From positions 127,401-191,400 of the forward strand of contig NJBH01000004.1 in NCBI GenBank assembly GCA_005223125.1: 64,000 nucleotides of DNA. The letters run 5' to 3'. The notes under the pieces are model-generated. The model was not told the origin of the DNA and ran no database searches. It saw nothing but the letters and a program-made list of their open reading frames with translations. The translations under genes were made by a program, and so were the position numbers. Of this stretch, positions 25,143 to 62,766 are shown one piece after another (within the stretch, counting starts at the first letter, position 1; each line of letters opens with the position of its first letter). The stretch is from Promethearchaeota archaeon Loki_b32 (GTDB lineage: Archaea > Asgardarchaeota > Lokiarchaeia > Sigyniarchaeales > SOKP01).

Positions 25143-25220
25143 TTTGAAATTTATAATTTTACCTATAAATACTAAATATGTTCAAATATTTAAAACAAAA
25201 TTATAAAAAAGAAGACGCTT

Positions 25221-25534
25221 GAGATTTATACCCGCCCTTTTGTGCTAGAACTCGTCGCCAAGTTCAGCTGGAGCATCAAACTAAGCGGCCTACCTAAAGC
25301 TAGCTCCAAGTACATTAACGCTTTCATTTGGCCTTGCACCAAGGTATTAGCTCGTTCCAACCATTCCTTCCTACAATTTCTCTGGCTTATATCCAAGTCA
25401 TTAATATGTGTACGAAGGCAGTGTCGTTTCAGTTGCTAAATTACGGTTCTCACCGTAGTAGTTATCTACACCTTGCTTGGAGGGTGGGGCGAGGTTCCTC
25501 AGCGAGTCAAGCTCACCGTCAGCTCACCAATCTC
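25221..25534 (-). ncRNA. rnpB: archaeal RNase P RNA
   Basis: GC-rich island; minus strand has GAGGAACCUCGCCCCACC (CR-I), GCAACUGAAAC, GGUGCAAGGCC and ACAAAAGGGCGGGUAUA (CR-V); ends GAGAUU/AAUCUC pair as P1. Confidence 0.9.
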
Positions 25535-25618
25535 ACTCGTCTCTTTTTAAAAAAGTAAAATAACTATTTAAGTTTTTGTTCAAAATGAGAGATTTTATTA
25601 AAAAGTATAATAGAAATT

Positions 25619-43781: not shown

Positions 43782-45122
43782 TTATGATGTGACAGTTAAG
43801 TTTTCAAATACCATGTAAGGGAATAGTGTATTAACAAAATATTCTCGTTCTTTTGAGATATATAAACAATTTCTTATCATTTTAAAAACATTCCCACTAA
43901 TATTACCAAGCCTAATTGGATTCTCAAATTTACCATTTTTTATATAGTATCCAAACCTTATTTCTGCTCCAAAGTTTCCAGATAATTCACTAGGTCGTAA
44001 CCAAGAAAATTGTTCTACATAATAACCCTCATTAATTTGTGAGATAATTTCTTCTAAGTTCATATCTCCAGGTAAAATCTCTAAGTTACTAACTCCGTTT
44101 TCAACACCACCAGACATCGTTCTTACTCCATTTCCAGTTGGTTCTTTATTTTCTAAAATTGCATACTTCTGATCATACAGCCGTTTTTGAAAAATTCCTT
44201 TCCTTATTATTTCATTTCTTTGATGTGGTGAACCTTCACCATCCCAACCATTAGTATTGAATCCTGATTTCATCAAACCGTCATCAAAAATGGTTATATT
44301 CTCAGAGGCTGCGATTTCATCGATTTTAAATCTAGATAATCCCTGATGAAAAGCTTTTCCAGAAGCATGAGCTCCTATTACAGGGTTTATTGCATTACTT
44401 AATACTTGAGGTGAAAAAATAATAGTTGCTTTATTATTCGATTTTGGAGTTTGTGCTATTAAAGTATCTTGAGCTAACTTTGCCCATTTTTTTATTCTAT
44501 CTGGAAAATTCAATTGATATTTTTCTTTAATGTATTGATACGGCCAATACTCTGCTAATTTACCATTTTCTTGGGCTTTTAACGATAATTCTATTAAAAA
44601 ATATGTTTTTAATGTGCTCAAATCGAGGTTATTACTATTTCTTAGAAATACTTCATCTATATGAACGCTAAAACGCCCAAAAGTAGGTTGTATTTCTTGT
44701 TGTTGTTTAATTTCAGATAATAATTCTTCAGTTGAATCATTTTTAATACCAAGAGGATCCTGAACTATTTTAGCATCAGAGATTGATATATTTGGTATTG
44801 TACCTTTACCGGGAAAATAGTATCCAGAACTCAAATTAGTTTTTGCTAGTAAGATACAAGTATCGATACTTCTCTCAATTTCTTTTGAATCCAGTGAATT
44901 TCCTTTAACTAATCCGATTCCAGTTTTATCTTCCTTCTGAGAGAGTATTCTTAAGATATATTCAAAATTACTAACATTCCTTTCATTATCAACTTTATCT
45001 TTTAGAAGTATCGACTCATAGGCATTTCTTTCAATAAGGAATATTTCATATTCATTAACATTCTTAGATTTTATACTTTTCTCAATTAAGTCTAATTTGT
45101 TATTGTCCATTTTTATTTTCAC
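43782..45122 (-). CDS. pmbA: PmbA/TldE family protein
   Basis: WDGEG, TGNG, SGNF; no HExxH; paired with tldD. Confidence 0.85.
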   Translation of the reverse strand: MKIKMDNNKLDLIEKSIKSKNVNEYEIFLIERNAYESILLKDKVDNERNVSNFEYILRILSQKEDKTGIGLVKGNSLDSKEIERSIDTCILLAKTNLSSGYYFPGKGTIPNISISDAKIVQDPLGIKNDSTEELLSEIKQQQEIQPTFGRFSVHIDEVFLRNSNNLDLSTLKTYFLIELSLKAQENGKLAEYWPYQYIKEKYQLNFPDRIKKWAKLAQDTLIAQTPKSNNKATIIFSPQVLSNAINPVIGAHASGKAFHQGLSRFKIDEIAASENITIFDDGLMKSGFNTNGWDGEGSPHQRNEIIRKGIFQKRLYDQKYAILENKEPTGNGVRTMSGGVENGVSNLEILPGDMNLEEIISQINEGYYVEQFSWLRPSELSGNFGAEIRFGYYIKNGKFENPIRLGNISGNVFKMIRNCLYISKEREYFVNTLFPYMVFENLTVTS

Positions 45123-46501
45123 CCCGGACTAATAAGCACTTCTTTGATTTTTAAATAACTACCTCCATCCGAAACTGGTACATCATCAGCATGCCCCTTT
45201 CCACATACTCCTCCATCTAAATGAGTTGGATCCTTGCTTATTGCATCTATATTTTGTAATACATCTAATACATATCCAGTTAGCGCAATACTCCTCAATA
45301 ATTGAGTTTTTTCCCCATTTTGAATTAAATATCCCTTCTTAGACATGCATTGTAGCCCCCCGCCAATAGGGTCCTCCATACCGAAATATGAGTGATTTAC
45401 CATGACTCCCTCTTTAATTTCTGAGATCATTTCTTCTAAATCATAATCTCCTGGCTCAAAATAGGTATTCGACATTCTTGGATGAACTACATGAGCATAA
45501 CTTTGCCTTCTTCCATTACCCTGTGGATCTCCATTCAGTACTGAGGCACTTCTTCTGTCATAAATGAAATTTTTCAGTATACCATTTTCAACTAACACAT
45601 TTTTACCTGCTCGTATTCCTTCATCATCAAAAAAGTAAAATCCCAATACATCTTCAGTATTAGGAGTGTCGCAAATTACACAAATATCTGAAGCCACTTG
45701 TTTATTTAGTTTTTCTTTTAGATAGCTTCTTTCTCTTAAAACTTGATCAGCTTCTAATCCATGACCAAAACTTTCATGTGCTATAATTCCGGCCATTCCT
45801 GGATCGACTATCACTGGAAACTTACCTAATGGCGGTTTTTTAGCATTTAACATTTCTAATGATGTATTAGCTATTTGTTCTAGTTTGTTATCGGTCAGTT
45901 CGTCGAAAATTTCAAAACCAACTATACCATCAGTAAGAAAATGATCAAAGTCAATCTTCATACCCTCTTTGACAATTGGGATAATAAATAACCGTGTACG
46001 AGGGATAACTTGTCTCAATTGACATCCCTCATTATTTACGAATATACGCGTTGTTTCAGTTTCCATATATTTTATCTTACATAGAACTATTCTTTTATCA
46101 TAGTTTTGAACGAAATTGGAAATATACCTTATTTTCTTTAGTTTATCTTCAATTGAAACTTCTTTAGGGTTAATTTTAGGTTTAATTTCTTTATCTAATT
46201 TCCATCCTTCAAATTCTGCAATTTCTTCTCCTTTATTGATTACTTTTGGTAATTTTTCTGTTACATTATTTAGTTTAGAAAAATCATCAAGAGCTATTTC
46301 TTTCCAAGTTCCATCAAATGTTCTTACAACAATTCCAGATGTTTTTACATTTACTGAAATATCCTCAGCGAAGGGACTTTTTTCAATAAACACAGAAGAA
46401 AAAGAATCGTACAAAATATCAAAATACTGGTTTGATCGTTTAAAGTTACTTGAAATTTCTTCAAAGGAAGTAAAAATTTGATCATATGATTGATCAATCA
46501 T
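45119..46501 (-). CDS. tldD: TldD family metalloprotease
   Basis: HESFGHGLEAD, FDDEG, RMSNTY, CGKG. Confidence 0.92.
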   Translation of the reverse strand: MIDQSYDQIFTSFEEISSNFKRSNQYFDILYDSFSSVFIEKSPFAEDISVNVKTSGIVVRTFDGTWKEIALDDFSKLNNVTEKLPKVINKGEEIAEFEGWKLDKEIKPKINPKEVSIEDKLKKIRYISNFVQNYDKRIVLCKIKYMETETTRIFVNNEGCQLRQVIPRTRLFIIPIVKEGMKIDFDHFLTDGIVGFEIFDELTDNKLEQIANTSLEMLNAKKPPLGKFPVIVDPGMAGIIAHESFGHGLEADQVLRERSYLKEKLNKQVASDICVICDTPNTEDVLGFYFFDDEGIRAGKNVLVENGILKNFIYDRRSASVLNGDPQGNGRRQSYAHVVHPRMSNTYFEPGDYDLEEMISEIKEGVMVNHSYFGMEDPIGGGLQCMSKKGYLIQNGEKTQLLRSIALTGYVLDVLQNIDAISKDPTHLDGGVCGKGHADDVPVSDGGSYLKIKEVLISPG

Positions 46502-47750: not shown

Positions 47751-49084
47751 ATGACAAATAATCTCGCTATTATCGGTCTCTCCTGGGGAGGAAATATTGG
47801 GAATACCCCCACAATACCCTAAACGAAGGGAAAGGTAAATTTGTTGATTATTTTGCTCAAAAAGCGGATATTGTCGTAAGATATAATGGTGGAAATAATG
47901 CAGGGCACACAATTGTTGCGAATGGAATTAAGTATAAATTTAAGTTAATGCCTAGTGGAGCCCCTTTAGAAAAGGAATGTGTAATAGCGAATGGTTGTGT
48001 AATCGATCCAAAAGTTTTGCTTGAAGAAATTGAAAACCTAAAGAATTTAAATAAAAAAATAAATTTAAAGTTAAGTTCTACCGCTCATGTAATTTTTCCT
48101 TTTCATCGTATTTTAGATGGATTAGAGGAAAAAACCAAAGGAGATTATGCTGCTGGTACTACTAAAAGAGGAATCGGTCCTACTTATTCTGATAAAGCCG
48201 CCCGCTGGGGTTTAAGAATCTTTGATTTAATAAATCCTGAGATATTAAGACCAAAATTGGAAAGGCTATATAAAATTAAAAAAGATTTAATAGCAGTTTA
48301 TGATCCAAGTGTAGATATCGATTTAGATGCTATTTATGAAGAATACAAATCCTATGGTGAACAATTAAAACCTTACGTTATTGATACAGCTTATTATTTG
48401 AATAAAGCTGTTGATTCTGGCAAAAATATTCTTTTTGAAGCAGCTCAAGGCAGTTTACTCGGTATAGATCATGGATTTTACCCTTTTGGAACATCTTCTA
48501 ATGCAAACGCGTTAGGTATATCTGCTGGCACTGGAATTCCTCCTAAAAAAATAGATAAAATAATAGGAATAGTAAAGGCATATACATCTCGAGTTGGCGA
48601 GGGTAAATTCCCAACAGAATTATATAATGAAATAGCTGAAAAAATTAGAGAGCAGGGTCATGAGTATGGTACAGTAACCGGAAGACCAAGAAGAGTTGGA
48701 TGGTTAGATCTTTTCAATATTAAATATGGAATAATGATTAATGGTGTTGACAAAGTTATAATCACTCTTTTAGATGCGTTAGAAGGAATTAACCCAATTA
48801 AGATGTGTATTGATTATGAATTAGATGGTAAAAAACTTGAGAGTTGGCCAATCCAATCAGAGATAATTAAAAATTGTAAACCAATTTATAAAAGTTTTGA
48901 AGGTTGGGAAGAAAAGACAAGAGAAGAATGGACTAATATTGCTCTAAAAGGTTATGATGCCCTCCCAGAGACAATGAAAATATACATTCAAGCAATTAGA
49001 GAGGAACTTCAGACCGAAATTGCATTAGTTTCAATTGGTCCTGATAGAAGAGAAACTATTGAATTAGTAGAGTGTAATTTTTAA
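47751..49084 (+). CDS. purA: adenylosuccinate synthetase, join(47751..47790,47823..49084), 433 aa after removing a 32-nt insert
   Basis: Spliced N-terminus MTNNLAIIGLSWGDEGKGKFVD...RYNGGNNAGHT; GTTKRGIGP, KAYTSRVG, TVTGRPRRVGW. Confidence 0.93.
47791..47822 (+). other. putative BHB/BHL-type mRNA intron (32 nt)
   Basis: GGGG(47785-88)/CCCT(47817-20) 4-bp helix with cuts 2 nt downstream on each strand; internal TATTG/CAATA stem; removal restores the WGDEGKGK motif. Confidence 0.78.
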
Positions 49085-49102
49085 TTTTTTTATTCTTACT
49101 TT

Positions 49103-49675
49103 TTATTTTAGGCAAACTAAACCAAAGCGATAAACAAAATCATTAGGAGGCCATTCTAAATCAATATTTAAATTTTTAACAGTTTTAGTTACATCAACTC
49201 CAACAGCTTCCATTGAATATCTCATTTTGTCTGGATAACGACAAGGATCACCAGAATCATAAGTACATTCTTTATCTGTTTTATTATAACAGACTCTACA
49301 AAATCCATCCCATAAAACAAGTCTTTTTTTAAATAAAACCTGGTCATCTTCAATAAATTTATTTATTTCTTGTTCTAGTTTATCTCGAAGTAGGTTATTC
49401 ATAAAAAATGCGTTTCTTATATTTGTTTCATTTCTTTTTGGATGTTTTGCTTTTACTTCTTGGATATAATTACCCAAATTAAATTGAACATAAATAAGGA
49501 AGAATCTGTGATATTTTGAAACTTCTTGTTCTAAATATGGAGCTTCAGGCGGACACGCCCATGAATGTCCATAGCTAGGGCATTTAAAATTAGGATTCAC
49601 ACAATAGCTTTGCACTTTTGGATCAAAAAATATGTCCTCTAATTTTATTTCGAGAATTGGCAAGAGAAGTTCCAA
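49103..49675 (-). CDS. DUF2284 family metal-binding protein
   Basis: CPSYGHSWACPP, CRVC, CRYP, RYSMEAVGVDV. Confidence 0.88.
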   Translation of the reverse strand: MELLLPILEIKLEDIFFDPKVQSYCVNPNFKCPSYGHSWACPPEAPYLEQEVSKYHRFFLIYVQFNLGNYIQEVKAKHPKRNETNIRNAFFMNNLLRDKLEQEINKFIEDDQVLFKKRLVLWDGFCRVCYNKTDKECTYDSGDPCRYPDKMRYSMEAVGVDVTKTVKNLNIDLEWPPNDFVYRFGLVCLK

Positions 49676-49836
49676 ATTTTACTTTTAAAATGTAAATAAT
49701 TTGATTATTTAAAATTTTTGTTCAACTTAGTTTAGCTTTTATACTCATATAACTCTACTTGAAAAAAGAAACTTTTTTTAAGAAATGAATAATAGATGAG
49801 ATTATTAAAAATATTCAATTATAGTTAAAAGTAAAC

Positions 49837-50493
49837 GTGAATAGAATGAAATTTTTGAAAGATAAAAAAATCAAATTGTTAAATGCTTCAAATGAATTTC
49901 ACGCTCAGGTTTTGAAAGGTTCAGACTTACTTCATGAATGTATTAATGATCTTATTGAAGTAAAACTAAATAAGAAGAAATTAGAAGATGTTCTAAAAAG
50001 CGAACATGATGCTGATGTTGCAAAAGAAAATTACATAAAGCTACTTTATGAAGATAAGCGAGCTCTTCCATTCTTAATTGAGGATCGCTATAGACTAATT
50101 AAATATATAGATATTATCTCTGATAAATCTGAAGAACTTGCTCGTGGATTGCAAGTATTTCCTTTTGATTGTTATGACGATATAAAGGATGATATGAAAA
50201 ATCTAAACAATACTTATGAAGAATCTATAAAACTTCTAATTGAAATGATAAATCTTATGGAGACAGATTTTAAAACAGCTTTCGAAACATCCTTCAATAT
50301 GGAAACTCTAAAGAGAAAGGGGCGTGAATCCAAATATAAGATCTTAGATGTAATATATAAAAAATCAGAAGAAAAGTCCCTTCAAATATATTTGACCTCT
50401 AAAATATGTATTAAATTGTTTGATATGATCGGAATTGCTGAGGAAATTAGTGATTTTCTAAGAAGTTTGATTATAAAATATCCAAGTAAATAA
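49837..50493 (+). CDS. DUF47/PhoU-like phosphate transport regulator
   Basis: EHDAD, EDR...D..SD; directly upstream of pit. Confidence 0.82.
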   Translation: MNRMKFLKDKKIKLLNASNEFHAQVLKGSDLLHECINDLIEVKLNKKKLEDVLKSEHDADVAKENYIKLLYEDKRALPFLIEDRYRLIKYIDIISDKSEELARGLQVFPFDCYDDIKDDMKNLNNTYEESIKLLIEMINLMETDFKTAFETSFNMETLKRKGRESKYKILDVIYKKSEEKSLQIYLTSKICIKLFDMIGIAEEISDFLRSLIIKYPSK

Positions 50494-50508
50494 TAAAAGG
50501 CGATTTAA

Positions 50509-51465
50509 ATGGGTTTTTCAGTTATATTACTTACATTTTTAATAATAGTGATAATAATCGCGTTTGGAATTGGCGCAAATGATGAAACATTTGCAGGAAT
50601 CTACGGTTCGAGAATTCTAAATATGAAACAAATCATGATCTTAGCTGCAATTTTTGGTATAACAGGTGCTCTTATACTGGGTGAGGCTGTAAGTAAAACT
50701 GTAGGTAAAGGCATTTTAGTTAATCTTGATGATGCCATCGTGATAACAATTTTGATTTCTACTGCTATTTGGATAATCTTATCATCTGCGTTAGGATTAC
50801 CGATATCAACTACTCACGCAACAATCGGAGCTGTAATAGGTCTTGGTATAGCTCTTAATTCTAGTCTTGACTGGTTGAAAATACTTGAATTGAGCATTTG
50901 GTGGATATTATCTCCGATTATTGGCTATGTTGTTTCATTTATAGTTTTTAAGCTGATGCATGCTTATAAAGTCAAACATTTGAATGGATTTCAGAGTCTA
51001 GAAAAAACCGAAAAAAGTTTCACATATATTGTTCTAATAGTTATTTGTATCACTGCATTCTCAAGAGCGGGAAATGATTGTTCAAATGCGGTTGGAATTG
51101 TTGTTGGGATAGGAGATTTTCAAATAAATCTTCTTCTTTTAATAACAGGCTTAAGTTTAGCTGGTGGACTAGTTGTTTTAGGAAGAGGTGTGATTAAAAG
51201 TGTTGGAAAAATCACAGAGCTGTACCCAAGTACTGCTTTTGCAGCACAAATTCCTACAGCTGCGATATTATTCCTTGGTACTACATTAGGAATTCCTCTA
51301 TCGGGATCTCATATGTTAGTAGCCTCTCTTGTAGGATTATCTAAGGCAAGCCGTACTCCTACTAAGAAAGGTTTATGGAAAATAGTTTTAGTCTGGTTCT
51401 TAACATTTCCAATGGCGGCACTTCTTTCAATTGTACTATACTTCCCAATAAATGCTGTAATTTAA
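50509..51465 (+). CDS. pit: inorganic phosphate transporter (PiT)
   Basis: GAND, LPISTTHA, GND, IPLSGSH. Confidence 0.92.
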   Translation: MGFSVILLTFLIIVIIIAFGIGANDETFAGIYGSRILNMKQIMILAAIFGITGALILGEAVSKTVGKGILVNLDDAIVITILISTAIWIILSSALGLPISTTHATIGAVIGLGIALNSSLDWLKILELSIWWILSPIIGYVVSFIVFKLMHAYKVKHLNGFQSLEKTEKSFTYIVLIVICITAFSRAGNDCSNAVGIVVGIGDFQINLLLLITGLSLAGGLVVLGRGVIKSVGKITELYPSTAFAAQIPTAAILFLGTTLGIPLSGSHMLVASLVGLSKASRTPTKKGLWKIVLVWFLTFPMAALLSIVLYFPINAVI

Positions 51466-51566
51466 TTTCTGCTTGAATTTTTTAAAGTAAATTATATGGT
51501 CATAATTAAGAAGCGCATGTTAATTATGAAATTGAAAAATTTATAATAAAAACTTATAAAATAATT

Positions 51567-52609
51567 TCAAACCTTCGAAGTTTTCTTAATTTTTCCATAT
51601 GTTTTCTGTGTAACAAGGAACAGGAAGGTCTTTCATTGTTAATAAGCCAGTCTTTGCTTTTATTACTATTGGAATTAAGTTAGCAACCATTGCGGCTGTG
51701 CCCACATCACCGTGAACTCCACCAATAATTTTTTGTCGTATAGAAGGATTACCATTAATTTCTATACAACATATTCTTCATGTTCTCCAGCATAAGCTAC
51801 AAAATCTAAAAATATCAGTTCATTTTCTCCTTTTTTAGCTATTGCCTTACTTTGTAAACCACAAACATATCCTTTAGGGACTTTCTCACCATAAGAAGTA
51901 GTGAATTCTTTTTCAGTAATTACTTCTTTAGGAGGGAATTCTATGATTTCATCATATTGAAAACCGAGAGCGGCAACAATCATCTGAATAGAATGAGTTA
52001 AACCAACGTGGCTAGTTATTTCTTTTTGACTAAATTTTTGATGAAACTCCTCAGGTGATAAGCCAGTCCCGATCTTGCGTTAGAAAGGCTCTCTTCTTTT
52101 CGCTGAATTCATCATTCTCGTTACTTCAATTGATTTAACATTTTGACATGGAGCGGTAATTACAATTGGTAATAAACCCATAAGATAACCGGGATTAATT
52201 CCAGTTCCTACAACTGTAACATTGTTGGATTTTGCTAATGCATCTAATTCTTCAGAGAGTTTGGGATATAGTTTAAATGGATAAGATAATTCTGTACAAA
52301 TAGAAATTACATTGCTTCCCGAATTAACTGCCTGTTTAATTAAAGGGGCAACTTTTTCTAAAAAAGAAGAAGTAGCAATAATGACCACATCAACTTTTTC
52401 CTTAGAAAGCAAGACTTCTAAATTAGATTCGATTACAAGATTTAGTTCATCTTCAATATCACAAAATTTATTTAATTTTTCACCAATAAACTGAGGATCA
52501 ATATCAACTACTCCTTTTACATCAATATTTTTACGTTTAAGGAGGAGGGTTGGTATTAATCTCCCCATTGGTCCTAAACCTACTTGAATAATAGTAATGG
52601 TTTACTCAT
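51567..52609 (-). pseudogene. NAD(P)-binding dihydrodipicolinate-reductase-like / 2,4-diaminopentanoate dehydrogenase-like pseudogene
   Basis: GLGPMG, GTGINPG, RREPF*RKIGTG, GVHGDVGTAAM; frameshift just after ATG 52609, TAA at 52080, frameshift near 51765. Confidence 0.8.
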
Positions 52610-52685
52610 TTTTTCTGCCTTTATTGATATTTTTACTTTAAGTTATCTTCTAAAATTTTCATGTACTAAAATCTTTTTGTTGATT

Positions 52686-54026
52686 TCAGCCAAATCTTGA
52701 TTGTGAAACAGGATGTGCGATTTCTTCGACTACTTCTTGTATTTTAACTATATGATCATGAGTATGTGCCATAGAAATAGATCCCAAGCCATGTAACCCT
52801 GATACATTCCTATTAAAGAGTGACAGTTGTAGTAGAGCTTCTCTTTTTTTATCTTTAAATTTAATAATTTCCTGTATTGAAGGATTTTCGATCCATTTTG
52901 AAAGAGCATGAAGCATAATTATTGATTTATGTCCTTTAGCTAAAATTGGTAATTTTTCATCACTAAATAATTGGTTTAAATTATTTAACAATTTGCTTCC
53001 TTCTTGATTTATTCGATGGTATTCTTGATGAGAATCTTTCAATATTTCTAAGGTTTTTAATCCTGCAACCATACTAAGAGGATATCCTGAAAAAGTTCCC
53101 CCTCCAATTAATACTTGATTCTCTACTTCCGGGCTGGATTGTTCAATAATATCTTTTCGACCACCAACAGCCCCTATTGGCATACCCCCACCAATAATTT
53201 TTCCCATAGTTGTTAAGTCAGGGATTACATTTAATTCATTCTGAAATAAAGAATTGGTAAAACGATATCCCGTGATTACTTCATCAAAAATGAGAAGTAT
53301 TCCATATCGCTCAGTTTCTTCTCGTAGTTTTTTTAAAAATTCTTTCTCAACAGGAAAACCACCACCACCTCCCAATACTGGTTCTAAAATTATTGCGGCT
53401 AGATTATCAGAATTTCTTTTAATTAAATCAAAAGTACGGTCATTGTTAATCTCAAAAGTTAGAACTCCTGCTTCTTTTGCATTAGGAAGCCCTGGAGGTC
53501 CATTTCCACCAAAAATTCCTCCTACGTCATAATACAAAGTATCATTTGCTCCATGCCATCCCATCTGAGCTTTAGCTACAATCCTCCTTTTAGTAAATGC
53601 TCGAGCTAAACGTGAAGCATACATAGTTGCTTCCGTTCCACTCACACAAAACCTTATTTTTTCAATACCTGGATTGTCTTGAATTATTGCTTCAGCTAAG
53701 TTAACTTGGTATTCAGTATTTGTACCAAAATGCCATCCATAAGTTAAATACTCTTTTAAAACTGTTTGAATTTTAGGAGGATTATGTCCTAGAATCATTG
53801 CGAAATGACCATTCCAACAATCAATGTAGTTATTACCGTCAATATCTTTAAGATAAGGACCACTAGCGGAATTAATGAAAACGGGAAAAGCTCCAATCAA
53901 GGGAAGCCCAAATGTTCTGATATTATGAGAAATTCCTCCGGGTAAAACTTTAATTGCTCTTTGCCAGATTTCTCGTGATTTAGGTCTATTTTTTTGATAA
54001 GTATTTATTTCTTCTTTAACAAACAT
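52686..54026 (-). CDS. class III PLP aminotransferase (glutamate-1-semialdehyde aminomutase-like)
   Basis: SGTEATM, LIFDEVITGYR, PDLTTMGKIIGGG. Confidence 0.9.
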   Translation of the reverse strand: MFVKEEINTYQKNRPKSREIWQRAIKVLPGGISHNIRTFGLPLIGAFPVFINSASGPYLKDIDGNNYIDCWNGHFAMILGHNPPKIQTVLKEYLTYGWHFGTNTEYQVNLAEAIIQDNPGIEKIRFCVSGTEATMYASRLARAFTKRRIVAKAQMGWHGANDTLYYDVGGIFGGNGPPGLPNAKEAGVLTFEINNDRTFDLIKRNSDNLAAIILEPVLGGGGGFPVEKEFLKKLREETERYGILLIFDEVITGYRFTNSLFQNELNVIPDLTTMGKIIGGGMPIGAVGGRKDIIEQSSPEVENQVLIGGGTFSGYPLSMVAGLKTLEILKDSHQEYHRINQEGSKLLNNLNQLFSDEKLPILAKGHKSIIMLHALSKWIENPSIQEIIKFKDKKREALLQLSLFNRNVSGLHGLGSISMAHTHDHIVKIQEVVEEIAHPVSQSRFG

Positions 54027-54167
54027 TTAAACTAGACATTTTTTTTGTTTACCTTTGATAAATGACTAAAATATTAAAATATTAGAGTTATTTCTCAATT
54101 CTCCAATATTGAGAATTTTTTAAAATTTGACATTAAAGTTTATATGTGAAATAAATTACTGTAAGTT

Positions 54168-54725
54168 ATGGAAAAGGAGCCAGATAGAGTTGAAGTTGTT
54201 GATTTTTCTGGAGAAGAATTCAACAAAAGATCGGTTCCTTGTTCAGTTGGATTGCTAATAATGCTTACAGTTGCCTTAGTAAATATATTTTTGATGGTTT
54301 TTTTTCCAGGTACTTATATTAGTTTATTTGTAAGTTTAATAATAATTGGGGGATTTGTATTATATTATTCTTTTATCTTAACACAAAATCCTGGAAAAAT
54401 TAGAAAATTCTCAATTTCTGTTGAAAACATTGAAATTATTTTACCATATATTTCCTTTTTTAGAATTAAATGGTCTGAATTTGAAAAATTGGAAATAAGA
54501 ATGAGGAAGTTTAATTATAAACCATATTATCAATATGAACTTCATTTTATGAATCGTGATTCTGATAAAGTAGTCAAGTTAAGCTTATTAGATTTTCATA
54601 AAGTAAAAGTTGATCAAATTTTAGTACTGTTAAAGAATTTTTCTAAAATTATGAAGAAAGAATTCGCAGCTGTTAAAGTAACAAATATTTCAGGAATTAT
54701 CCAGGTTGAAAATTTCAAAATTTAA
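54168..54725 (+). CDS. two-TM membrane protein with probable PH-like domain
   Basis: Two hydrophobic helices followed by IKWSEFEKLEI. Confidence 0.65.
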   Translation: MEKEPDRVEVVDFSGEEFNKRSVPCSVGLLIMLTVALVNIFLMVFFPGTYISLFVSLIIIGGFVLYYSFILTQNPGKIRKFSISVENIEIILPYISFFRIKWSEFEKLEIRMRKFNYKPYYQYELHFMNRDSDKVVKLSLLDFHKVKVDQILVLLKNFSKIMKKEFAAVKVTNISGIIQVENFKI

Positions 54726-54738
54726 AGTAATTTAGAGC

Positions 54739-56016
54739 TTATTCAAATTTAGCACCACACGTTGAACAGTTCTCAACTAGAGCTCCACATGTTGCCCCAC
54801 AAATTTGACAGAATCTTATAGTTCCAGTTCTTCTTTTTTTTGGCGGCTTTAAAGTGGTAATCGATACAGATTTTTCTGGTAGTTCATTAACTTCTGGTAT
54901 TTCAGATATTACTTCTCTTTTCGAATTTCCGGTTTGAATTGTAATTTCCTTTCCAAAAAATCCTCCGACCCTTACTTTTTTTGTTTCTACAGCAGGAACT
55001 GGTTCTGATTCTTCTATGACTTCTTCTTGAATTTCAAGCTCTTCTATGATGGGCTCTGAAATAGGCTCACGCAAATCTACTTCAGGTAATTCTTCTTCTA
55101 AATCCTCTTCATAAACCATATTTACAAATTCTTCGTCCAATTTCAAAAGAGTTTGGCAGTTTAAACATCTAAAGATGTGTTTGAAACCAATATTTTTAGC
55201 AAGTGAATATTTTGCAGCACAACAGCTATGAAATTTAGTATTACAATTAAAACATTTATGTATTTCATCCGAATGAGCGTCACAAATAGGGCATAATTCT
55301 TGTTCACATATATTACACACTTCATTATCTTCGGGAGATAAACTGATGAGGTCTACTGCTAAGCATTCATAAAAAATTTGATCTTCTTTTAAAATCTGTT
55401 CAGATTCATCAGTTTTGATAATCTTAAATTCACTTTTGTTCTGAATTAATGAGCCTATAATATTTTGGAGAAGCTTTTCATTTGGACAATAAAATGTACC
55501 ACCATGGGTTTCACTTGAAATAACTTTAAGTTTAACGTCATCCTCATAAAACTTCTCCTCACCAACACGAATAATGTCTATAAATGCTGAAAATTTTTTG
55601 GCTTTAATTAATAGATCATAGAGGGCATTATAATAATCTTCAGATAATTTACTTGGAGTATCTGAAATTATTATTACTCGATAATTTTTTCTTGTTTCAC
55701 GACTTTTTCTAAAAATATATGCTAAAATCTCATATAATCCATTTTCTAAATAACTACGCTCATTTTCTCGTGTTTCCCATGTTTCATCTATTGTTTTCAA
55801 AATGCCTTCGGATTCTTTTAAATCATAAATATTAATGGGATTTTCATCTTTCTGAAATAATACAATTCCATATGAAGTTAAAGGATTAAATTTATCTTTC
55901 TCTTTAATAAAAGCACTTATAGCTTTCATTACAGTTTTTTTCTTAAGAAAATTAGAAACTAAATCTATGTAAAATATAAACTCTTCAGAATTTATTGTAT
56001 TTGATCTTGGTAACAT
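54739..56016 (-). CDS. vWA domain + PHD/RING-like finger + C-terminal zinc ribbon protein (paralog B)
   Basis: RVIIISD, IDIIRVG, SETHGGTFY; CxxC..CxxC..CxxCxxxxHxCC..CxxC; acidic linker; CQICG..CSTCG. Confidence 0.78.
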   Translation of the reverse strand: MLPRSNTINSEEFIFYIDLVSNFLKKKTVMKAISAFIKEKDKFNPLTSYGIVLFQKDENPINIYDLKESEGILKTIDETWETRENERSYLENGLYEILAYIFRKSRETRKNYRVIIISDTPSKLSEDYYNALYDLLIKAKKFSAFIDIIRVGEEKFYEDDVKLKVISSETHGGTFYCPNEKLLQNIIGSLIQNKSEFKIIKTDESEQILKEDQIFYECLAVDLISLSPEDNEVCNICEQELCPICDAHSDEIHKCFNCNTKFHSCCAAKYSLAKNIGFKHIFRCLNCQTLLKLDEEFVNMVYEEDLEEELPEVDLREPISEPIIEELEIQEEVIEESEPVPAVETKKVRVGGFFGKEITIQTGNSKREVISEIPEVNELPEKSVSITTLKPPKKRRTGTIRFCQICGATCGALVENCSTCGAKFE

Positions 56017-56490
56017 TTTAGCACCAATCGTAAAGCTTTAAAAAAATAATAATAGAAGTATTATAAACCAAATTAAATAATATTATTTTATTTCTAATCT
56101 AATTTTATTATAATTTTAATGTATTATGAATTTTTAAATTTTGATAATCACTAAAACATACTTTTTCTTTGAGATAATCAATTTTTTATTGTTAAAAAAT
56201 TATGATTCCTAAATTATTATTTTTTCAAATCCACTAATGCAATAAAAGAGTTTTGAATTTACATATTCAAAATTATTAGATTTAATCTTGGGCTCAAATA
56301 TGGATAAAAATTAGAATTCTATGATTTTATGGTATTTTTGCTTTAGAATATATTTTATAAATTTGGTTTTTATAAATATTATCCAACAATTTCGCCATAA
56401 TCTTAAGGAATTTAATAGATTTCTTTTAATATATTTTTATTAAAAGATTATAATATAAAAGTATTATAAAACTCATTTTATATCTTAATC

Positions 56491-57816
56491 TTATAATCTA
56501 GATCCACAGTTGTTGCATTTGATTTGTTGAGGATCATTTTGCCTCCCACATTGAGGACATATAAGAAAAGTTGGTTTCTTTCTTGTTCCACTATTAGGTA
56601 AAACAGTTCTTTCTTGTTGTATTACTTCTTTTTTTTCAGATTCTGATTTGAAGGTGGTTTCTGTTGTTCTTTCATATACTATCTTATCGCCAATCTTTTT
56701 AACTATATATGCTTTTCCAAAAAATCCACCAATTCTGATAGTTTTAATTGGTTCTCCTTCTGAGATACTTTCTGATTCTTCTGAAAGAGGTTCAACTTTT
56801 TCTTCCATTTCTGTTGAAAAAGCAGGTGGTTCTTTATCAAGGATTAATTCTGGTATATCTTCAAGTACTTCTTTTTCCATATATTCTTTCACTGTACTTA
56901 CTTCCACTTCCCCATATACTTCAATGATCTCATCTTCATCAATTTTTAAAAGCACATCGCAAGATTTATTAGGACACCGAAAGATGTTAGGTATACCAAT
57001 GTTATGGTTTATAACATGATTTGTAATACAACAATTATGAAAGCTTGTATTACAATCTTCACAAATCGAGGGGACATCATGGACACTAGCACAAACAGGA
57101 CAAATTTCTTCATTGCAAAAATGACAAACCAAATTCATTTCATCAGATTTTTTCAAAGATTTAGCTAAATGATTATAAAAGGCATAATCCTCTGTACTAA
57201 TTGTAATGCGTTCCGGGGAATCCACAAAAGTAGTTGCAAATTGTTTAGTTTTAACTAGCTTTTTAATTGTATCGGTGAATTCTTTTTTATCCTTAATATA
57301 AAATATCCCCCCCTTCGTATCCGATGCTAACATATTTAATTTTACATCGTCACTAAAAAAACGCTCGTCTTTTTCCGATACTCTGATAATATCTATAAAA
57401 GTTGGAAAATTTTTAATTACTGAGACCAAGTTGAACAATGCTTCTTGATAATCATCAGATAAATCAGAAGGGGTATCTGTAATAACTATAATTCTATTAA
57501 ATTTGGATTTTTTTCTCACTGTTTCTGCGATATAAGAAAAGATGTAAAATAATCCATTTTCAAAAAAGCTTTGTTCCTTAGGGCGAGTTTTCCAATTTTC
57601 TTCGATTGAGTTTGTGATTATTTTAGAATCCTTTTTATCAGTTATAAAGATTGGATTTCCTTCTTCTTGGAAAATAAGAAGAGAATAACGACCTTTTAAG
57701 TTTGCTTTATTTTTTTCCTCAATATAATATTTAATTACTTTGATAATATCCTTTTTTTTTAATAAATCCTTAGTTAGATCTAAGTAAAAGCATACATCTT
57801 CATTCATTTTTTCCAC
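56491..57816 (-). CDS. vWA domain + PHD/RING-like finger + C-terminal zinc ribbon protein (paralog A)
   Basis: Same architecture; shares ENGL, DTPS.LS.DY, DDVKL, IFRC and GGFFGK with 54739-56016. Confidence 0.78.
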   Translation of the reverse strand: MEKMNEDVCFYLDLTKDLLKKKDIIKVIKYYIEEKNKANLKGRYSLLIFQEEGNPIFITDKKDSKIITNSIEENWKTRPKEQSFFENGLFYIFSYIAETVRKKSKFNRIIVITDTPSDLSDDYQEALFNLVSVIKNFPTFIDIIRVSEKDERFFSDDVKLNMLASDTKGGIFYIKDKKEFTDTIKKLVKTKQFATTFVDSPERITISTEDYAFYNHLAKSLKKSDEMNLVCHFCNEEICPVCASVHDVPSICEDCNTSFHNCCITNHVINHNIGIPNIFRCPNKSCDVLLKIDEDEIIEVYGEVEVSTVKEYMEKEVLEDIPELILDKEPPAFSTEMEEKVEPLSEESESISEGEPIKTIRIGGFFGKAYIVKKIGDKIVYERTTETTFKSESEKKEVIQQERTVLPNSGTRKKPTFLICPQCGRQNDPQQIKCNNCGSRL

Positions 57817-58008
57817 ATCTTTCTATTCAAGTTCGAACAGTATCTCTATTAGTATTAATAATCATAATGATAAAACCTCCTTAAATATTTATTAGTATCG
57901 AAAATTTTTAGAAAAGATAGAAGAAATAAATATAAATAAAAATACATATGATTTTATAATTCATATAAATTAGGCACAATAAAGTGAAATAAATAGGTGG
58001 AAGATTAG

Positions 58009-60021
58009 ATGGATGACTTTTTAAGAAAGATACAGCTTTCTGAATACGCAATAGAGATTTATCTCAAATCACTTGGTAAATTTCCTCTTACTTATTATGA
58101 ATTATACACATTAGTTCCTAAGGCATCTCCGGAGGAATTCAATGAAGGTTTAGGTGAGTTGTTAGGTGCTGGTTTACTTCTTCAACAAAATTCGAAAAAG
58201 AAAGAAGATATTACTCATTATTTATCTTTACCCCCAATTCTTCCAATTTTAAATTATTATGATAATATTAGTGCAAATTTAGATGATATTAAAAATTCAA
58301 TCCAAGAAATAATGATTAATTCAGTAAACAACGTTTTTCAAGAAAATAATACTATTGAATTGGATTCTATATTACAAAGTTTTCAAGAAATTAGAAAAGA
58401 TATTGAAGAGGATTCTATTATCCAAAAACAGGAAGTAGAAGATATTGTTAAGAGTATGGAAGAATTAAACAATGTTAAGCAAAAATTATCTGTTCTTCAC
58501 CAAAAAATTATAAGTATCACGCAAACTAATTTTGCGGATTTAATTAAAACAATAAATACTCTTAAAACCAATATAGTAGAATCTATAAATTCTTTGGAAT
58601 TCAAAAAACATAAAGAAGAAATTATCTCTCTTATCGAACAGATTTTCAAAGAGAAATTAGATAGTATGGTTGGAGATTTTCTTGATAACTTGCATGAATT
58701 AGTTGAGAAGGAGTTTGAAGAAACAGGAAAACCGGTGGAAAATTCAGCGGATTTAATAATTCAATACCAAAATGACTTTAAAATGCTTTTATTAAACATG
58801 TTGAGTAATTTTGAAACTAAAATGAATAAAATCTATGATTTACTCAAAGAAAATCAAGAAGATCTATTTGCTCGGATGAAAAACTTAGAAATAAAAATCG
58901 CAGAGAATTTAAATAGCATTATCCAGAATTCCATAGATGAAGTTTCAAATTTGAATAATCCCCCTGTAAACTTAATGAAAAAGTACTTTCAAGAGATAAG
59001 AACGATTGATAAACCTTTATTTAATAATATTTGGGTTATAAATAGTGTAACCAAGATTAATGAAATGATTCAACAACTCATTACAAATTCTCAAGAAAGT
59101 GTAACTATTATTATTCCTTTTCTTGAAAACCATTTAGCACTTGAACAATTTGAAGAAATCGCTGCTAATTTAAAGATTAAAATAGCGTCTTCAGAAGCTC
59201 ATACTAATAGTATGGTTAAAAGTTTTAAAGACATTAAGAATATTATATATAGGAATTATCAAAATGAAAATATGGTTGCTTTAAAGGGAGATAATGGTGT
59301 ATTATTTTTTGGAGTAATTCAAGATTCGAAAAATCCTTTAGATGATTTTATTGGAATAGGAACAAGTTATGCACCTTTAATTACTTTATTAAATCCTTTA
59401 ATTCAAAACATATGGGAAAAAGCTTATTCGGATACTTTTCATGGTACACAAAAGGCGCAAACACAACCTAGTAAGACCTCTACAACAACTTCAAAAGTAC
59501 TCACAACTGCTAAACCTATAATATCACCTAAAATTGAATCGAAAAAAGCAGCTAAAAAATCTGTAAAAACAGAAATTAAAGAACCTAAACCAATTATTAC
59601 TATACCAGGTCAAATTCAAGAAATTCCTAAAAACGATATAAGATCTACTAAAAGTCAAACAAAGAAAGCGCCAAGTCCTACTACAGCTAAACCCCAAATT
59701 ACAGATTTAAAGCAAAAATTACAAGAAACAATTGATTTTATATCTGTAGCTCAACCTAAAGCTGGTGATGAAGCAGGTATACAAATAAACACTGCCTTTA
59801 CTAATTTAATTAATAAATTGGATAATATTAAAGGGGATGAATTTGGAAAGATACTACAAGATATTGCTGATTTAATTCTAGAGAAAAAAGGGTTTTCGGT
59901 AACCTTACATAAAGTAAGAAGTACCATAAACAAGTATAAGGAAAAACTTTCTTTATTAGATGAAAGTGATAAAAGAGAAATTTTTGAAAATATTCAAAGT
60001 TGGAAAAAAAAAATATTTTAA
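58009..60021 (+). CDS. TrmB-like wHTH + long coiled coil + PLD-like domain protein
   Basis: LSEYAIEIYL N-terminus, heptad-rich middle, IWVINS..INEMIQQLI...QESVTIIIP, S/T/K/P linker. Confidence 0.6.
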   Translation: MDDFLRKIQLSEYAIEIYLKSLGKFPLTYYELYTLVPKASPEEFNEGLGELLGAGLLLQQNSKKKEDITHYLSLPPILPILNYYDNISANLDDIKNSIQEIMINSVNNVFQENNTIELDSILQSFQEIRKDIEEDSIIQKQEVEDIVKSMEELNNVKQKLSVLHQKIISITQTNFADLIKTINTLKTNIVESINSLEFKKHKEEIISLIEQIFKEKLDSMVGDFLDNLHELVEKEFEETGKPVENSADLIIQYQNDFKMLLLNMLSNFETKMNKIYDLLKENQEDLFARMKNLEIKIAENLNSIIQNSIDEVSNLNNPPVNLMKKYFQEIRTIDKPLFNNIWVINSVTKINEMIQQLITNSQESVTIIIPFLENHLALEQFEEIAANLKIKIASSEAHTNSMVKSFKDIKNIIYRNYQNENMVALKGDNGVLFFGVIQDSKNPLDDFIGIGTSYAPLITLLNPLIQNIWEKAYSDTFHGTQKAQTQPSKTSTTTSKVLTTAKPIISPKIESKKAAKKSVKTEIKEPKPIITIPGQIQEIPKNDIRSTKSQTKKAPSPTTAKPQITDLKQKLQETIDFISVAQPKAGDEAGIQINTAFTNLINKLDNIKGDEFGKILQDIADLILEKKGFSVTLHKVRSTINKYKEKLSLLDESDKREIFENIQSWKKKIF

Positions 60022-60043
60022 CACTTCTTTTGTAATTATTTGC

Positions 60044-60826
60044 TTATTGAGAAGGATTTGTTGTCTTTCTTCTCTTAATAAAAAATAGAATAAATCCCCG
60101 GGTGATCCATGTTAATCCAAATACAAAAAATCCTAAAAAGAATATAGATATTGTAACTGATATTATAAAATTGGGTGAGGTTAAACCAATAATTCCGAAA
60201 ATAGGACAAAGTGGACCAAGAACAACAACAAGTAAATAAGTACTTTTATCTTTTTCATCAACTTGAATATAAGCGGTGATATTAAACCAACCGATAAGGA
60301 TCAAAAATATCGGTAGTAGATAAGATGAAATCTCAAGGAAGGGGTATGTATTGCCTCCTAACGCGAATGCATAGAAATAATTTATATAGAAATAGAAAAT
60401 GAGTAATAAAGCGCTTATTGGAGTTGGTACTCCAGTATATCCTGAACCTTTTAAGATATTAAAACGTGCTAACCTGAGCATTGCTCCAATAACAAAACTA
60501 ATTGCTCCTATTATAATAAAAAGGTCAAATAGAGTCCCTGTTTTAAAAGATTGGTATGTTAAAATCGCTGGTACTATTCCAAAAGTTAATGAATCGCTTA
60601 AAGAATCTAATTCTCTACCCATATCATTCACAGTTTTAGTCTTTCGTGCAATATATCCGTCTATCAAGTCAGTACCAAGGCTGATTGTTATTAAAAAAAA
60701 TCCTAAAGAAAGAAATTCACGACTTCCAATACACGCACATATTAAAGCAACTAAGCCCAAACTCGTTCCTAGGAGAGTTATATAATCTTTGTGTTTCAAT
60801 AATTTTGGAATACTGATGTCTGACAT
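60044..60826 (-). CDS. pssA: CDP-alcohol phosphatidyltransferase (archaetidylserine synthase-like)
   Basis: DLIDGYIAR...GRELDSLSD, RLARFN, GVPTP. Confidence 0.85.
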   Translation of the reverse strand: MSDISIPKLLKHKDYITLLGTSLGLVALICACIGSREFLSLGFFLITISLGTDLIDGYIARKTKTVNDMGRELDSLSDSLTFGIVPAILTYQSFKTGTLFDLFIIIGAISFVIGAMLRLARFNILKGSGYTGVPTPISALLLIFYFYINYFYAFALGGNTYPFLEISSYLLPIFLILIGWFNITAYIQVDEKDKSTYLLVVVLGPLCPIFGIIGLTSPNFIISVTISIFFLGFFVFGLTWITRGFILFFIKRRKTTNPSQ

Positions 60827-60984
60827 GCTAATTTTCTAATTTTTTTATATTAATAATAATTAAGCCTAATAGAATTAAAACATTTTCATGGCGATATAAT
60901 AACCATATATAATCTACCCTAAACTTTATTAAATCATATTATTATTCATAGCATAACTAAATTAAAAAAAATAAGGAAAAAATA

Positions 60985-61725
60985 ATGACGTTTTGCAAAG
61001 AATGTGGAGAAGAGATAAAAGATCTCACCCAAAATTTCTGTGAAAAGTGTGGTTCATCAATACCTGATAGTGTAAAACAGAGTGAAACCGTTTCTAAGAC
61101 AATAACAGCACCAGCAAGACCATCAGGTCAACAATCCTATTATCAACCTGGGAGTTTGTTTGATATTAACCGCAACTACTACATCCTTAAAGAGAAATAC
61201 TGGGATATTTAGAAGGTCCTCCCTTTTAAACTCAAATGGGGTAGTGGGGATATATTGGACGAGAAAAACCAAATTATTGGAAGAATGAAAAGGGTGATCT
61301 TGAGCATTAGACGAAGAGTTGAGTTGCAAGAAGTTGATGGTACTATTGCGGCTACAATCCACGCTAAAATTGTGTCTGCACGTGGAGCGCAAGATTTAAA
61401 AGATCCTCAGGGAAATTTAATTGCTCGAATTAAGAAGAAAATTCTGTCATTTTTCAGACCTGTATTTTACCTTGAAGATCCTGAAGGAAATCAATGGTTC
61501 CGTGCCCAAGGTAAGTTTATGGGGTTTCAATTTAAGGTCTATGACGTTACAACAGGCAATGTCATCGCAGAAATTGAAAAAGCTGATAGATGGAGAGATT
61601 TATTCTTAGGTGGATTGCTTGACTTTAAGGACACTTATGCTTTAAGAATACTTGATAATGAAACCGACAGGAGAATCCTTCTAGGTTTTGTCTTGTCAAT
61701 AGACAATGTCCTTCACGACTACTAA
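60985..61725 (+). CDS. zinc-ribbon + LURP-one/scramblase (Tubby C-like) protein, join(60985..61206,61237..61725), 236 aa
   Basis: ORFs 60985-61212 and 61255-61725 share a frame; splicing gives YILKEKYWDWGSGDILDEKNQIIG; repeats such as ARIKKKILSF and DTYALRI are typical of the family. Confidence 0.85.
61207..61236 (+). other. putative BHB mRNA intron (30 nt)
   Basis: TGGG AT^A TTTAGAAGG tcctc CCTTTTAAA CTCA AA^T: 4-bp helix, two 3-nt bulges, 9-bp intron stem; contains the in-frame TAG. Confidence 0.85.
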
Positions 61726-62034: not shown

Positions 62035-62766
62035 ATGGTTAAAAATATAATAAAGTTAGTAATTGATGGAGAAGAACATTCTTTTTCAGAAGATCATAAG
62101 AATTTTATAGGACCAAAGAAGAAATATACAATTAAAGAATTTCAAGAAGAAAAGTTAAAAAGTATAAAAAATTTTGTAGCACTTAGGGAAGGAACTGTTT
62201 TTGGTTTTTCTGATGAGGAAGAATTTGATAAATGGTTAGTCAAAAAAAATTTATATGAAGAGCATAATAAACATAAAAAACGTCTGAAGAAAGTTCTTGA
62301 GACTAAAAGACCTTCTGAAGAATGGGAGAAAATTAACCAGAACCTAATAAAAGAAGAAAAAAAAGCCACTACTAGATTCAAAAATTTCTTAAAGAAACAT
62401 AATCTTGAGCCAGGTCAACATGAATTAATAAGAGAGAAGATAAAAGAAGATTTTGATCCATATTTACCACCAAAACTAAATACCATGTATCTCTATGAAC
62501 ATATATTTTACGGTGGTAGTTTTATATCCCTAAAAGGGGGCTACATTTATTGTGGTAAGAATTATCCAAAATATTATCCAGATCTTCGTAATTTCAATTT
62601 TAATGACAAGACATCTTCAGTAGATTTTAATTGCGGAAGCCGGGCTTATGTTTATGAGCATATAAACTTTGGAGGAAACTCAGTGTGGCTTTGGGGTCCC
62701 TATTATCCCTTTTTATTATTCGTTGGCCTTGATAATAAAATATCTTCAGCAGTAGTTTACGGTTAA
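62035..62766 (+). CDS. protein with C-terminal beta/gamma-crystallin domain
   Basis: LYEHIFYGG...FNDKTSS and VYEHINFGG...DNKISS Greek-key motifs. Confidence 0.8.
   Translation: MVKNIIKLVIDGEEHSFSEDHKNFIGPKKKYTIKEFQEEKLKSIKNFVALREGTVFGFSDEEEFDKWLVKKNLYEEHNKHKKRLKKVLETKRPSEEWEKINQNLIKEEKKATTRFKNFLKKHNLEPGQHELIREKIKEDFDPYLPPKLNTMYLYEHIFYGGSFISLKGGYIYCGKNYPKYYPDLRNFNFNDKTSSVDFNCGSRAYVYEHINFGGNSVWLWGPYYPFLLFVGLDNKISSAVVYG

Follow-up and report, generated by a model that had tools for sequence, protein, structure and literature searches.

How can a cell make protein from genes that are broken by short inserts containing stop codons? The question is raised by the window analysed here, a stretch of 64,000 nucleotides (contig C36, positions 127401-191400) from the genome of Promethearchaeota archaeon Loki_b32 (G000 in our numbering), a bin of 4.13 Mb in 71 contigs that is 95.5% complete and has 30% G+C. 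Within the window purA and a zinc-ribbon/LURP-one-related gene (LURP below) are each interrupted by an insert of 30-32 nt. Our data suggest that these inserts are bulge-helix-bulge (BHB) introns in pre-mRNA which are cut by EndA and joined by RtcB as a matter of routine, and that such introns have been repeatedly gained and lost. We put the probability of this reading at roughly 0.88.

The first insert lies near the start of purA, at a point where the genes of intron-less relatives are uninterrupted. In the lines below a slash marks the cut within a bulge.

47751..47790, plus strand: purA exon 1, with ATG at 47751, 13 codons and the first base of the Asp codon of the motif WGDEGKGK
47785..47788, plus strand: exon strand of the purA central helix, GGGG, followed by the bulge AG/G
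47791..47822, plus strand: purA intron, 32 nt, frameshifting, with TAA at 47820-47822 and a relaxed BHB
47817..47822, plus strand: intron strand of the purA central helix, CCCT (47817-47820), and the two intron bases of the 3' bulge (AA/A)
47823..49084, plus strand: purA exon 2, adenylosuccinate synthetase, matching PF00709 positions 10-416

We found that a single one of the 13 registers tested restores WGDEGKGK and yields a 434-aa protein. This is the same register that the BHB rule gives, with cuts 2 nt past each strand of the central helix. The intron stem begins 3 nt late, so that the 5' bulge becomes a 6-nt loop. In contexts of 72-110 nt the BHB is the minimum-energy fold, with a helix probability of about 0.66. 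An insert of 30-32 nt is present at the same base in 12 of the 27 readable purA loci of the genus (window gene counted) and the other 15 are uninterrupted; the GGGG strand is invariant in the 12 aligned intron-bearing genes.

The second insert separates the two domains of the LURP gene, whose homologues are single proteins of 230-245 aa carrying both.

60985..61206, plus strand: LURP exon 1, with ATG at 60985, 74 codons, matching PF13240
61201..61204, plus strand: exon strand of the LURP central helix, TGGG, followed by the bulge AT/A
61207..61236, plus strand: LURP intron, 30 nt, in frame, with TAG at 61210-61212 and a 9-bp stem pairing 61208-61216 with 61222-61230
61231..61236, plus strand: intron strand of the LURP central helix, CTCA (61231-61234), and the two intron bases of the 3' bulge (AA/T)
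61237..61725, plus strand: LURP exon 2, matching PF04525 (LOR) and weakly PF03803 (Scramblase)

Here too only one of 13 registers tested, which gives KYWDWGSGD, matches the intron-less relatives, and it is again the BHB register. The site combines a 4-bp helix, 3-nt bulges and the 9-bp intron stem with a weak exon helix of 1 bp. At both sites, then, the register fixed by homology coincides with cuts past the second base of each bulge. A first-pass annotation made from the sequence of the window had proposed precise removal by a helix plus 2-nt rule, a G-rich exon strand paired to a C-rich intron strand (CTCA, CCCT) and premature stops, and each of these is confirmed. It had also expected such genes to be annotated as split, and public collections indeed list the LURP gene as two proteins of 75 and 156 aa. 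Neither site has the strict BHB form with two 3-nt bulges and both flanking helices, given the 1-bp exon helix of LURP and the 6-nt 5' loop of purA. Both fit relaxed BHB forms as described in PMC5829648.

The structure is kept where the sequence changes. Of 30 LURP loci, 7 carry a 30-nt insert at the site of the window and 3 carry an insert of 27-30 nt located 9 nt upstream (window gene counted). In the eight introns compared at the window's site 103 of 104 pair cells were paired and 5 pairs had changed on both sides, while slid controls reached at most 67% paired; given the kinship of the sequences, shuffle counts cannot be read as probabilities. A paralogue of RadA provides a second case. 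An insert sits at one base in 28 of its 81 loci (80 of them metagenomic), and the central helix is complete in all 26 that are fully readable. It covaries across the exon-intron border, with GGGA opposite TCTC and GGAA opposite TTCT or TTCC. The exon codons at the insert site are restricted compared with those of intron-less genes.

The genome encodes the enzymes that such introns would need. We found two EndA paralogues and one RtcB; as the first-pass annotation had stated, no endA or rtcB was found in the 64-kb window, and both were located on other contigs, the EndA genes on C18 near 184,500 and C2 near 78,500 and the RtcB gene on C48 near 37,300. EndA alpha has retained all three catalytic residues (Tyr, His and Lys); its best alignment is to PDB 3P1Z/3AJV and extends to an N-terminal loop with Lys. 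The second paralogue is without the catalytic His. Asgard EndA has been described as a two-subunit type with an L1 loop linked to cleavage of relaxed motifs (PMC5829648). The host possesses RtcB together with an EndA of the type able to cut relaxed motifs. A comparison with the host's tRNA introns had been suggested as a check, and the tRNA-Ala intron of Loki_b32 proved to be 30 nt long, with bulges and a design like those of the mRNA inserts. ARAGORN reports just 15 tRNA genes in 4.13 Mb. A T-arm pattern search showed that ARAGORN had missed or misread several tRNA genes whose D-arm or anticodon arm holds an insert of about 30 nt.

We propose a transcript fold in which 4 bases of the exon are paired with 4 bases close to the 3' end of the intron and each strand is left with one bulge. 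The two-subunit EndA would then cut past the second base of each bulge and RtcB would join the exons, as it does for tRNA introns. We infer both steps from established EndA biochemistry and from the precedent of archaeal cbf5. The introns and enzyme genes of the mRNA splicing layer proposed earlier are thus present in the genome, and the splicing itself is predicted. It would probably be routine processing and not a switch. Almost all in-frame introns contain a stop, and a message left unspliced would therefore give a truncated protein and not one with a disrupted active site. Within one Promethearchaeota family the introns would be repeatedly gained and lost, would last at sites whose exon sequence is able to form the helix, and would move between close strains on short recombination tracts.

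The first-pass annotation had suggested that there may be many more such introns genome-wide, detectable as an enrichment of frame-restoring motifs. Motif-first scans of the genome showed no overall excess over frame-offset controls (33 versus 27 and 32 in one scan), because chance matches swamp the few dozen true sites; the scans make hundreds of sites unlikely and served only as a source of candidates, the top ones still being recognisable genes. A nucleotide-level census of indels found the LURP site and one new site. Since it misses introns shared with the comparator, a protein-level census was used instead, in which inserts were located by protein homology alone (flanks at least 80% identical) and the motif was scored afterwards. 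This homology-first census yielded the enrichment that the motif scans had not: among 39 distinct inserts a full 4-bp helix was present on the sense strand in 34 and on the antisense strand in 1. Merged by position these make 16 sites, 15 of which are 27-36 nt long with at least 3 of 4 helix pairs. The sites not chosen for their motif are the extra EF-2, uL11 and LURP sites and those in a Rab-like GTPase, an acyl-CoA dehydrogenase, a histone and UppS.

For Loki_b32 itself the total came to at least 16 BHB-type inserts of 28-35 nt in at least 15 genes. Homologues cover just 0.79 Mb of the genome, so this is a floor, and a rough estimate of the true number is a few tens. Those outside the window are given below; coordinates are script indices along the strand named.

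C3 75803, plus strand: EF-2, 30 nt
C57 12437, plus strand: uL11, 28 nt
C4 22684, plus strand: proteasome alpha subunit, 29 nt
C30 11079, plus strand: ubiquitin E2, 31 nt
C45 47177, plus strand: CdhD, 33 nt
C33 1017, plus strand: RadA paralogue, 31 nt
C63 17589, plus strand: Rab-like GTPase, 30 nt
C60 7052, minus strand: acyl-CoA dehydrogenase, 30 nt
C27 24936, minus strand: histone, 30 nt, with two stops; its minimum-energy fold is a complete BHB
C36 112467 and 112775, minus strand: Sec-HdrA, two inserts of 30 and 35 nt
C32 11029, plus strand: Fe-S protein, 31 nt
C4 12750, minus strand: NAD-dependent epimerase/decarboxylase, 31 nt
C64 35432, minus strand: metallo-beta-lactamase-fold hydrolase, 30 nt

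The inserts in the Fe-S protein, the epimerase/decarboxylase and the hydrolase were placed by what we take to be the restored motifs of these proteins and not by a homologue test. In five host genes the exons match adjoining stretches of a Pfam profile, as with UQ_con, where 15-55 is followed by 56-139. The central helix has 4 of 4 pairs in 12 of the 16 inserts. When 300,000 random registers were drawn, a 4-bp helix occurred in 2.5%, a helix together with an A opening both bulges in 0.29%, and these with a hairpin of -5 kcal/mol in 23 cases. The other inserts of the genome follow other helices, and the common design around a Trp codon and TGGG that had been proposed is valid at the two window sites only. 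The HdrA gene with the inserts of 30 and 35 nt, on C36 near 78,600-79,000 (minus strand) and upstream of the window, has three TGA codons within its first 140 codons where paralogues have Cys motifs; from this pattern it is probably a selenoprotein.

Relatives carry further sites. In other genera of the family we found one additional site in uL11 and three in the first part of EF-2, which brings EF-2 to four different insert sites across three genomes. A look-up of uL11 identified Ca. Harpocratesius repetitus (G044), Promethearchaeum syntrophicum (G050) and Ca. Lokiarchaeum ossiferum (G055) as members of another family in the order of Loki_b32. In the homologue-covered coding DNA of other families, 165 kb in all and including sequence of MK-D1, B-35 and H. 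repetitus, we found no such insert; the sample is small, comes in large part from H. repetitus and does not show absence. In genome G006 (joined loci L064-L083 index 337487; L084-L103 index 105071) we observed two 30-nt BHB-like inserts with in-frame stops, one of them in the DGNRRW motif of UppS. Among uL11 homologues P0160-P0279, 34 of 120 are without the N-terminal motif by a crude rule, and many of 126-128 aa hold the C-terminal domain only; these are probably intron-split genes. The relatives concerned are Promethearchaeota, so the earlier description of the lineage as the closest to eukaryotes was overstated; PMC12077186 names Hodarchaeales as the proposed sister of eukaryotes. The named purA loci nearest to that of the window come mostly from Promethearchaeota metagenome-assembled genomes. 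L169, L174, L180-L183, L188 and L189, titled Thor-, Odin-, Hermod- or Hodarchaeota, hold purA genes 76-88% identical to that of the window, like the Promethearchaeota records, and these titles may be misassigned.

Close strains differ in whether they carry an intron. A contig 95.7% identical to the window over 2.9 kb has one gap only, the 30-nt LURP insert, and strains 95-97% identical have the LURP intron at one site (A), at another (B), or not at all. The differences between intron-bearing and intron-less alleles are concentrated in one tract.

61170..61263 (approximate), plus strand: about 15 protein-neutral substitutions between intron-bearing and intron-less LURP alleles of near-identical strains, likely a recombination patch

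Beyond this junction-proximal tract the alleles show no differences over the next 210 nt. Silent substitutions particular to the intron-bearing allele lie within about 40 nt upstream and 30 nt downstream of the junction. The pattern fits transfer on a short recombination tract and does not agree with loss of the intron by way of a copy made from spliced RNA of the same strain. Mosaic structure is seen in other parts of the LURP gene as well, which means that the intron is not necessarily what drives the tract.

In-frame (3n) inserts found by homology contain a stop in 11 of 12 cases against 6.4 expected from shuffles (P about 0.004, a rough statistic as some sites are related), and those in other frames in 12 of 24. 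The sole stop-free 3n insert is the first HdrA intron, downstream of which lies the frameshifting second intron. Protein P0286 (246 aa), a candidate stop-free LURP insert, was rejected, as TGA had been read as Trp. A public gene call, L435 131-871, translates TGA in the LURP gene as Trp, apparently on account of the stop within the site-B intron; introns can thus mimic an alternative genetic code. Taken together, we consider it likely that one Promethearchaeota family maintains dozens of EndA-spliced mRNA introns as a standing but changing population, with housekeeping and eukaryote-like genes as their hosts, that in-frame introns are under selection to hold a stop, and that the introns spread by recombination.

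Other explanations have to account for the same data. The bin comes from a metagenome and intact paralogues exist for some of the hosts (RadA, EF-2, HdrA), as might be expected if the interrupted genes were pseudogenes or assembly errors. Yet the LURP exon-1-only product is recorded from six assemblies of close strains and all five that could be read at the junction carry the insert, so that this insert is no assembly error; its flanks differ at silent sites only and the helix shows compensatory changes. Moreover, the genome gave only one match each for purA and uL11, and without intron removal the cell would have neither, barring unassembled copies. We regard decay or misassembly as scarcely credible. 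Hairpins and stops such as those of the inserts are also seen at sites at which ribosomes bypass part of a message, and the inserts could in principle stay in the mRNA and be skipped by bypassing or frameshifting. Many of them, however, split a codon (phases 1 and 2), most are without matched take-off and landing codons, and the conserved feature is an exon-intron helix with cuts at bulge position 2, which is the rule of EndA, making bypassing very improbable. We rate just as low the chance that the inserts are tiny mobile DNA elements excised from the DNA in part of the population. Their presence and absence among close strains would suit such elements, but each insert occurs once in the genome, with no multi-copy family of the miniature inverted-repeat type, and the motif depends on G-U pairs and is specific to one strand. 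The intron-less alleles, in addition, have diverged flanks of their own. No kinship was detected among 15 mRNA inserts and one tRNA intron (best pairwise score 18 versus a shuffled mean maximum of 17.2). Group I and group II self-splicing introns, with their large catalytic RNA core, do not match inserts of 28-35 nt, and the window's sole Rfam match is to RNase P RNA.

A different proposal, made by the first-pass annotation, accepts the introns and adds that the splicing of some is regulated, so that they act as post-transcriptional switches like HAC1/XBP1. A stop is retained in the in-frame introns, with all three stop codons in use, some sites persist across many species, and the purA junction has competing folds, each of which could serve a switch. 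Against this, the host genes are unrelated and without a common pathway, and EF-2 has its four different sites in three genomes. The variation of the LURP intron among strains 95-97% identical argues against a required switch at this site. We therefore found no support for regulation and consider it unlikely, though less so than the alternatives above.

Several observations weigh against BHB splicing itself. No joined exons with the flanks of an intron allele were found in public contigs; where intron-less LURP contigs were read at the junction, their flanks were those of the intron-less allele. The purA motif is relaxed and has competing folds, and in shorter contexts of 55-62 nt the BHB is not the minimum-energy fold. 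At 4 of the 16 inserts only 3 of 4 helix positions pair. Several census sites were chosen for their motif (six genes were targeted) and the relatives are not independent. At 95.5% completeness the bin may also lack second copies of a gene. Folding-energy z-scores against shuffles were +1.2 and +0.4 at the two window sites, no better than shuffles, and were not used as support.

Elsewhere in the window, the census of homologue-covered genes revealed no third insert beyond purA and LURP.

25217-25538, minus strand: archaeal RNase P RNA (RF00373, 127 bits), the sole Rfam match in the window
43782-46501, minus strand: tandem open reading frames (ORFs) of 446 and 460 aa, resembling by eye a PmbA/TldD peptidase pair
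54739-57816, minus strand: two neighbouring paralogous ORFs of 425 and 441 aa, with a Cys-rich centre and a zinc-ribbon-like C-terminal end
62035-62766, plus strand: ORF of 243 aa, in whose place close strains have longer, different ORFs; its C-terminal part presumably resembles a beta/gamma-crystallin motif

If these messages are indeed spliced at BHB motifs, annotation wrongly treats core Asgard genes in these genomes as split or truncated, with consequences for marker phylogenies and for claims of gene loss. There would be a prokaryote that needs routine mRNA splicing and that could serve as a living model for the spread of introns through protein genes before the advent of a spliceosome or nucleus. 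Working with a two-enzyme system, it would allow tests of how introns are gained and lost and of what unspliced messages cost the cell. A further question would be how splicing can precede the arrival of ribosomes on a message, a point that links to the separation of ribosomes and DNA in Asgard cells reported in PMC8776820. The ancestry of spliceosomal introns is not shown by these inserts.

The chemistry is known; its extension to many genes, with introns still being gained and lost, is undescribed in the literature searched. We found no report of introns in Asgard mRNAs in a search that left most subscription journals outside, and a 2026 Asgard review mentions neither introns nor splicing (PMC12993045). 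The closest known system is the cbf5 pre-mRNA of Desulfurococcales and Sulfolobales, whose BHB intron is supported by cDNA; introns in other genes were described as predicted but unconfirmed (PMC2738675). Like the cbf5 intron, those of Loki_b32 are short, lie in coding sequence, often have a relaxed BHB, occur with a hetero-oligomeric EndA and are lost in particular lineages. The cbf5 intron splits a catalytic Asp codon after its first base, and the purA intron splits the Asp codon of WGDEGKGK likewise. In contrast, cbf5 is one gene with one site and cDNA support, whereas here at least 15 genes in one genome are involved, their splicing predicted from DNA, with several sites per gene among relatives and presence or absence among near-identical strains. 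Cbf5 was named in 2020 as the only other reported example beside Haloferax volcanii HVO_1309, in which a 46-nt BHB intron is cut in vitro by an archaeal splicing endonuclease (PMC7714728). HVO_1309 shares with our cases an mRNA substrate for that enzyme (cleavage being predicted here), but its 46-nt intron is a single case, situated in the 5' untranslated region, and leaves the reading frame unaffected.

The non-canonical tRNA introns of Asgard archaea resemble the mRNA inserts in their BHB boundaries, repeated gains, lack of a clear arrival route and two-subunit EndA (bioRxiv 10.64898/2026.10.13.758758). That preprint, where the most intron-rich classes are Jordiarchaeia and Atabeyarchaeia, covers tRNA genes only and does not contain the word mRNA. 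The parallel with HAC1/XBP1 drawn by the first-pass annotation stands as an analogy of chemistry and does not extend to regulation or common descent. IRE1-dependent splicing of HAC1/XBP1 also removes a short frame-breaking intron with protein enzymes and no spliceosome, and RtcB ligates XBP1 in animals. It differs in its nuclease, in a substrate of two stem-loops and in being regulated by stress, while the introns of Loki_b32 would be removed by the enzymes of tRNA splicing as routine processing.

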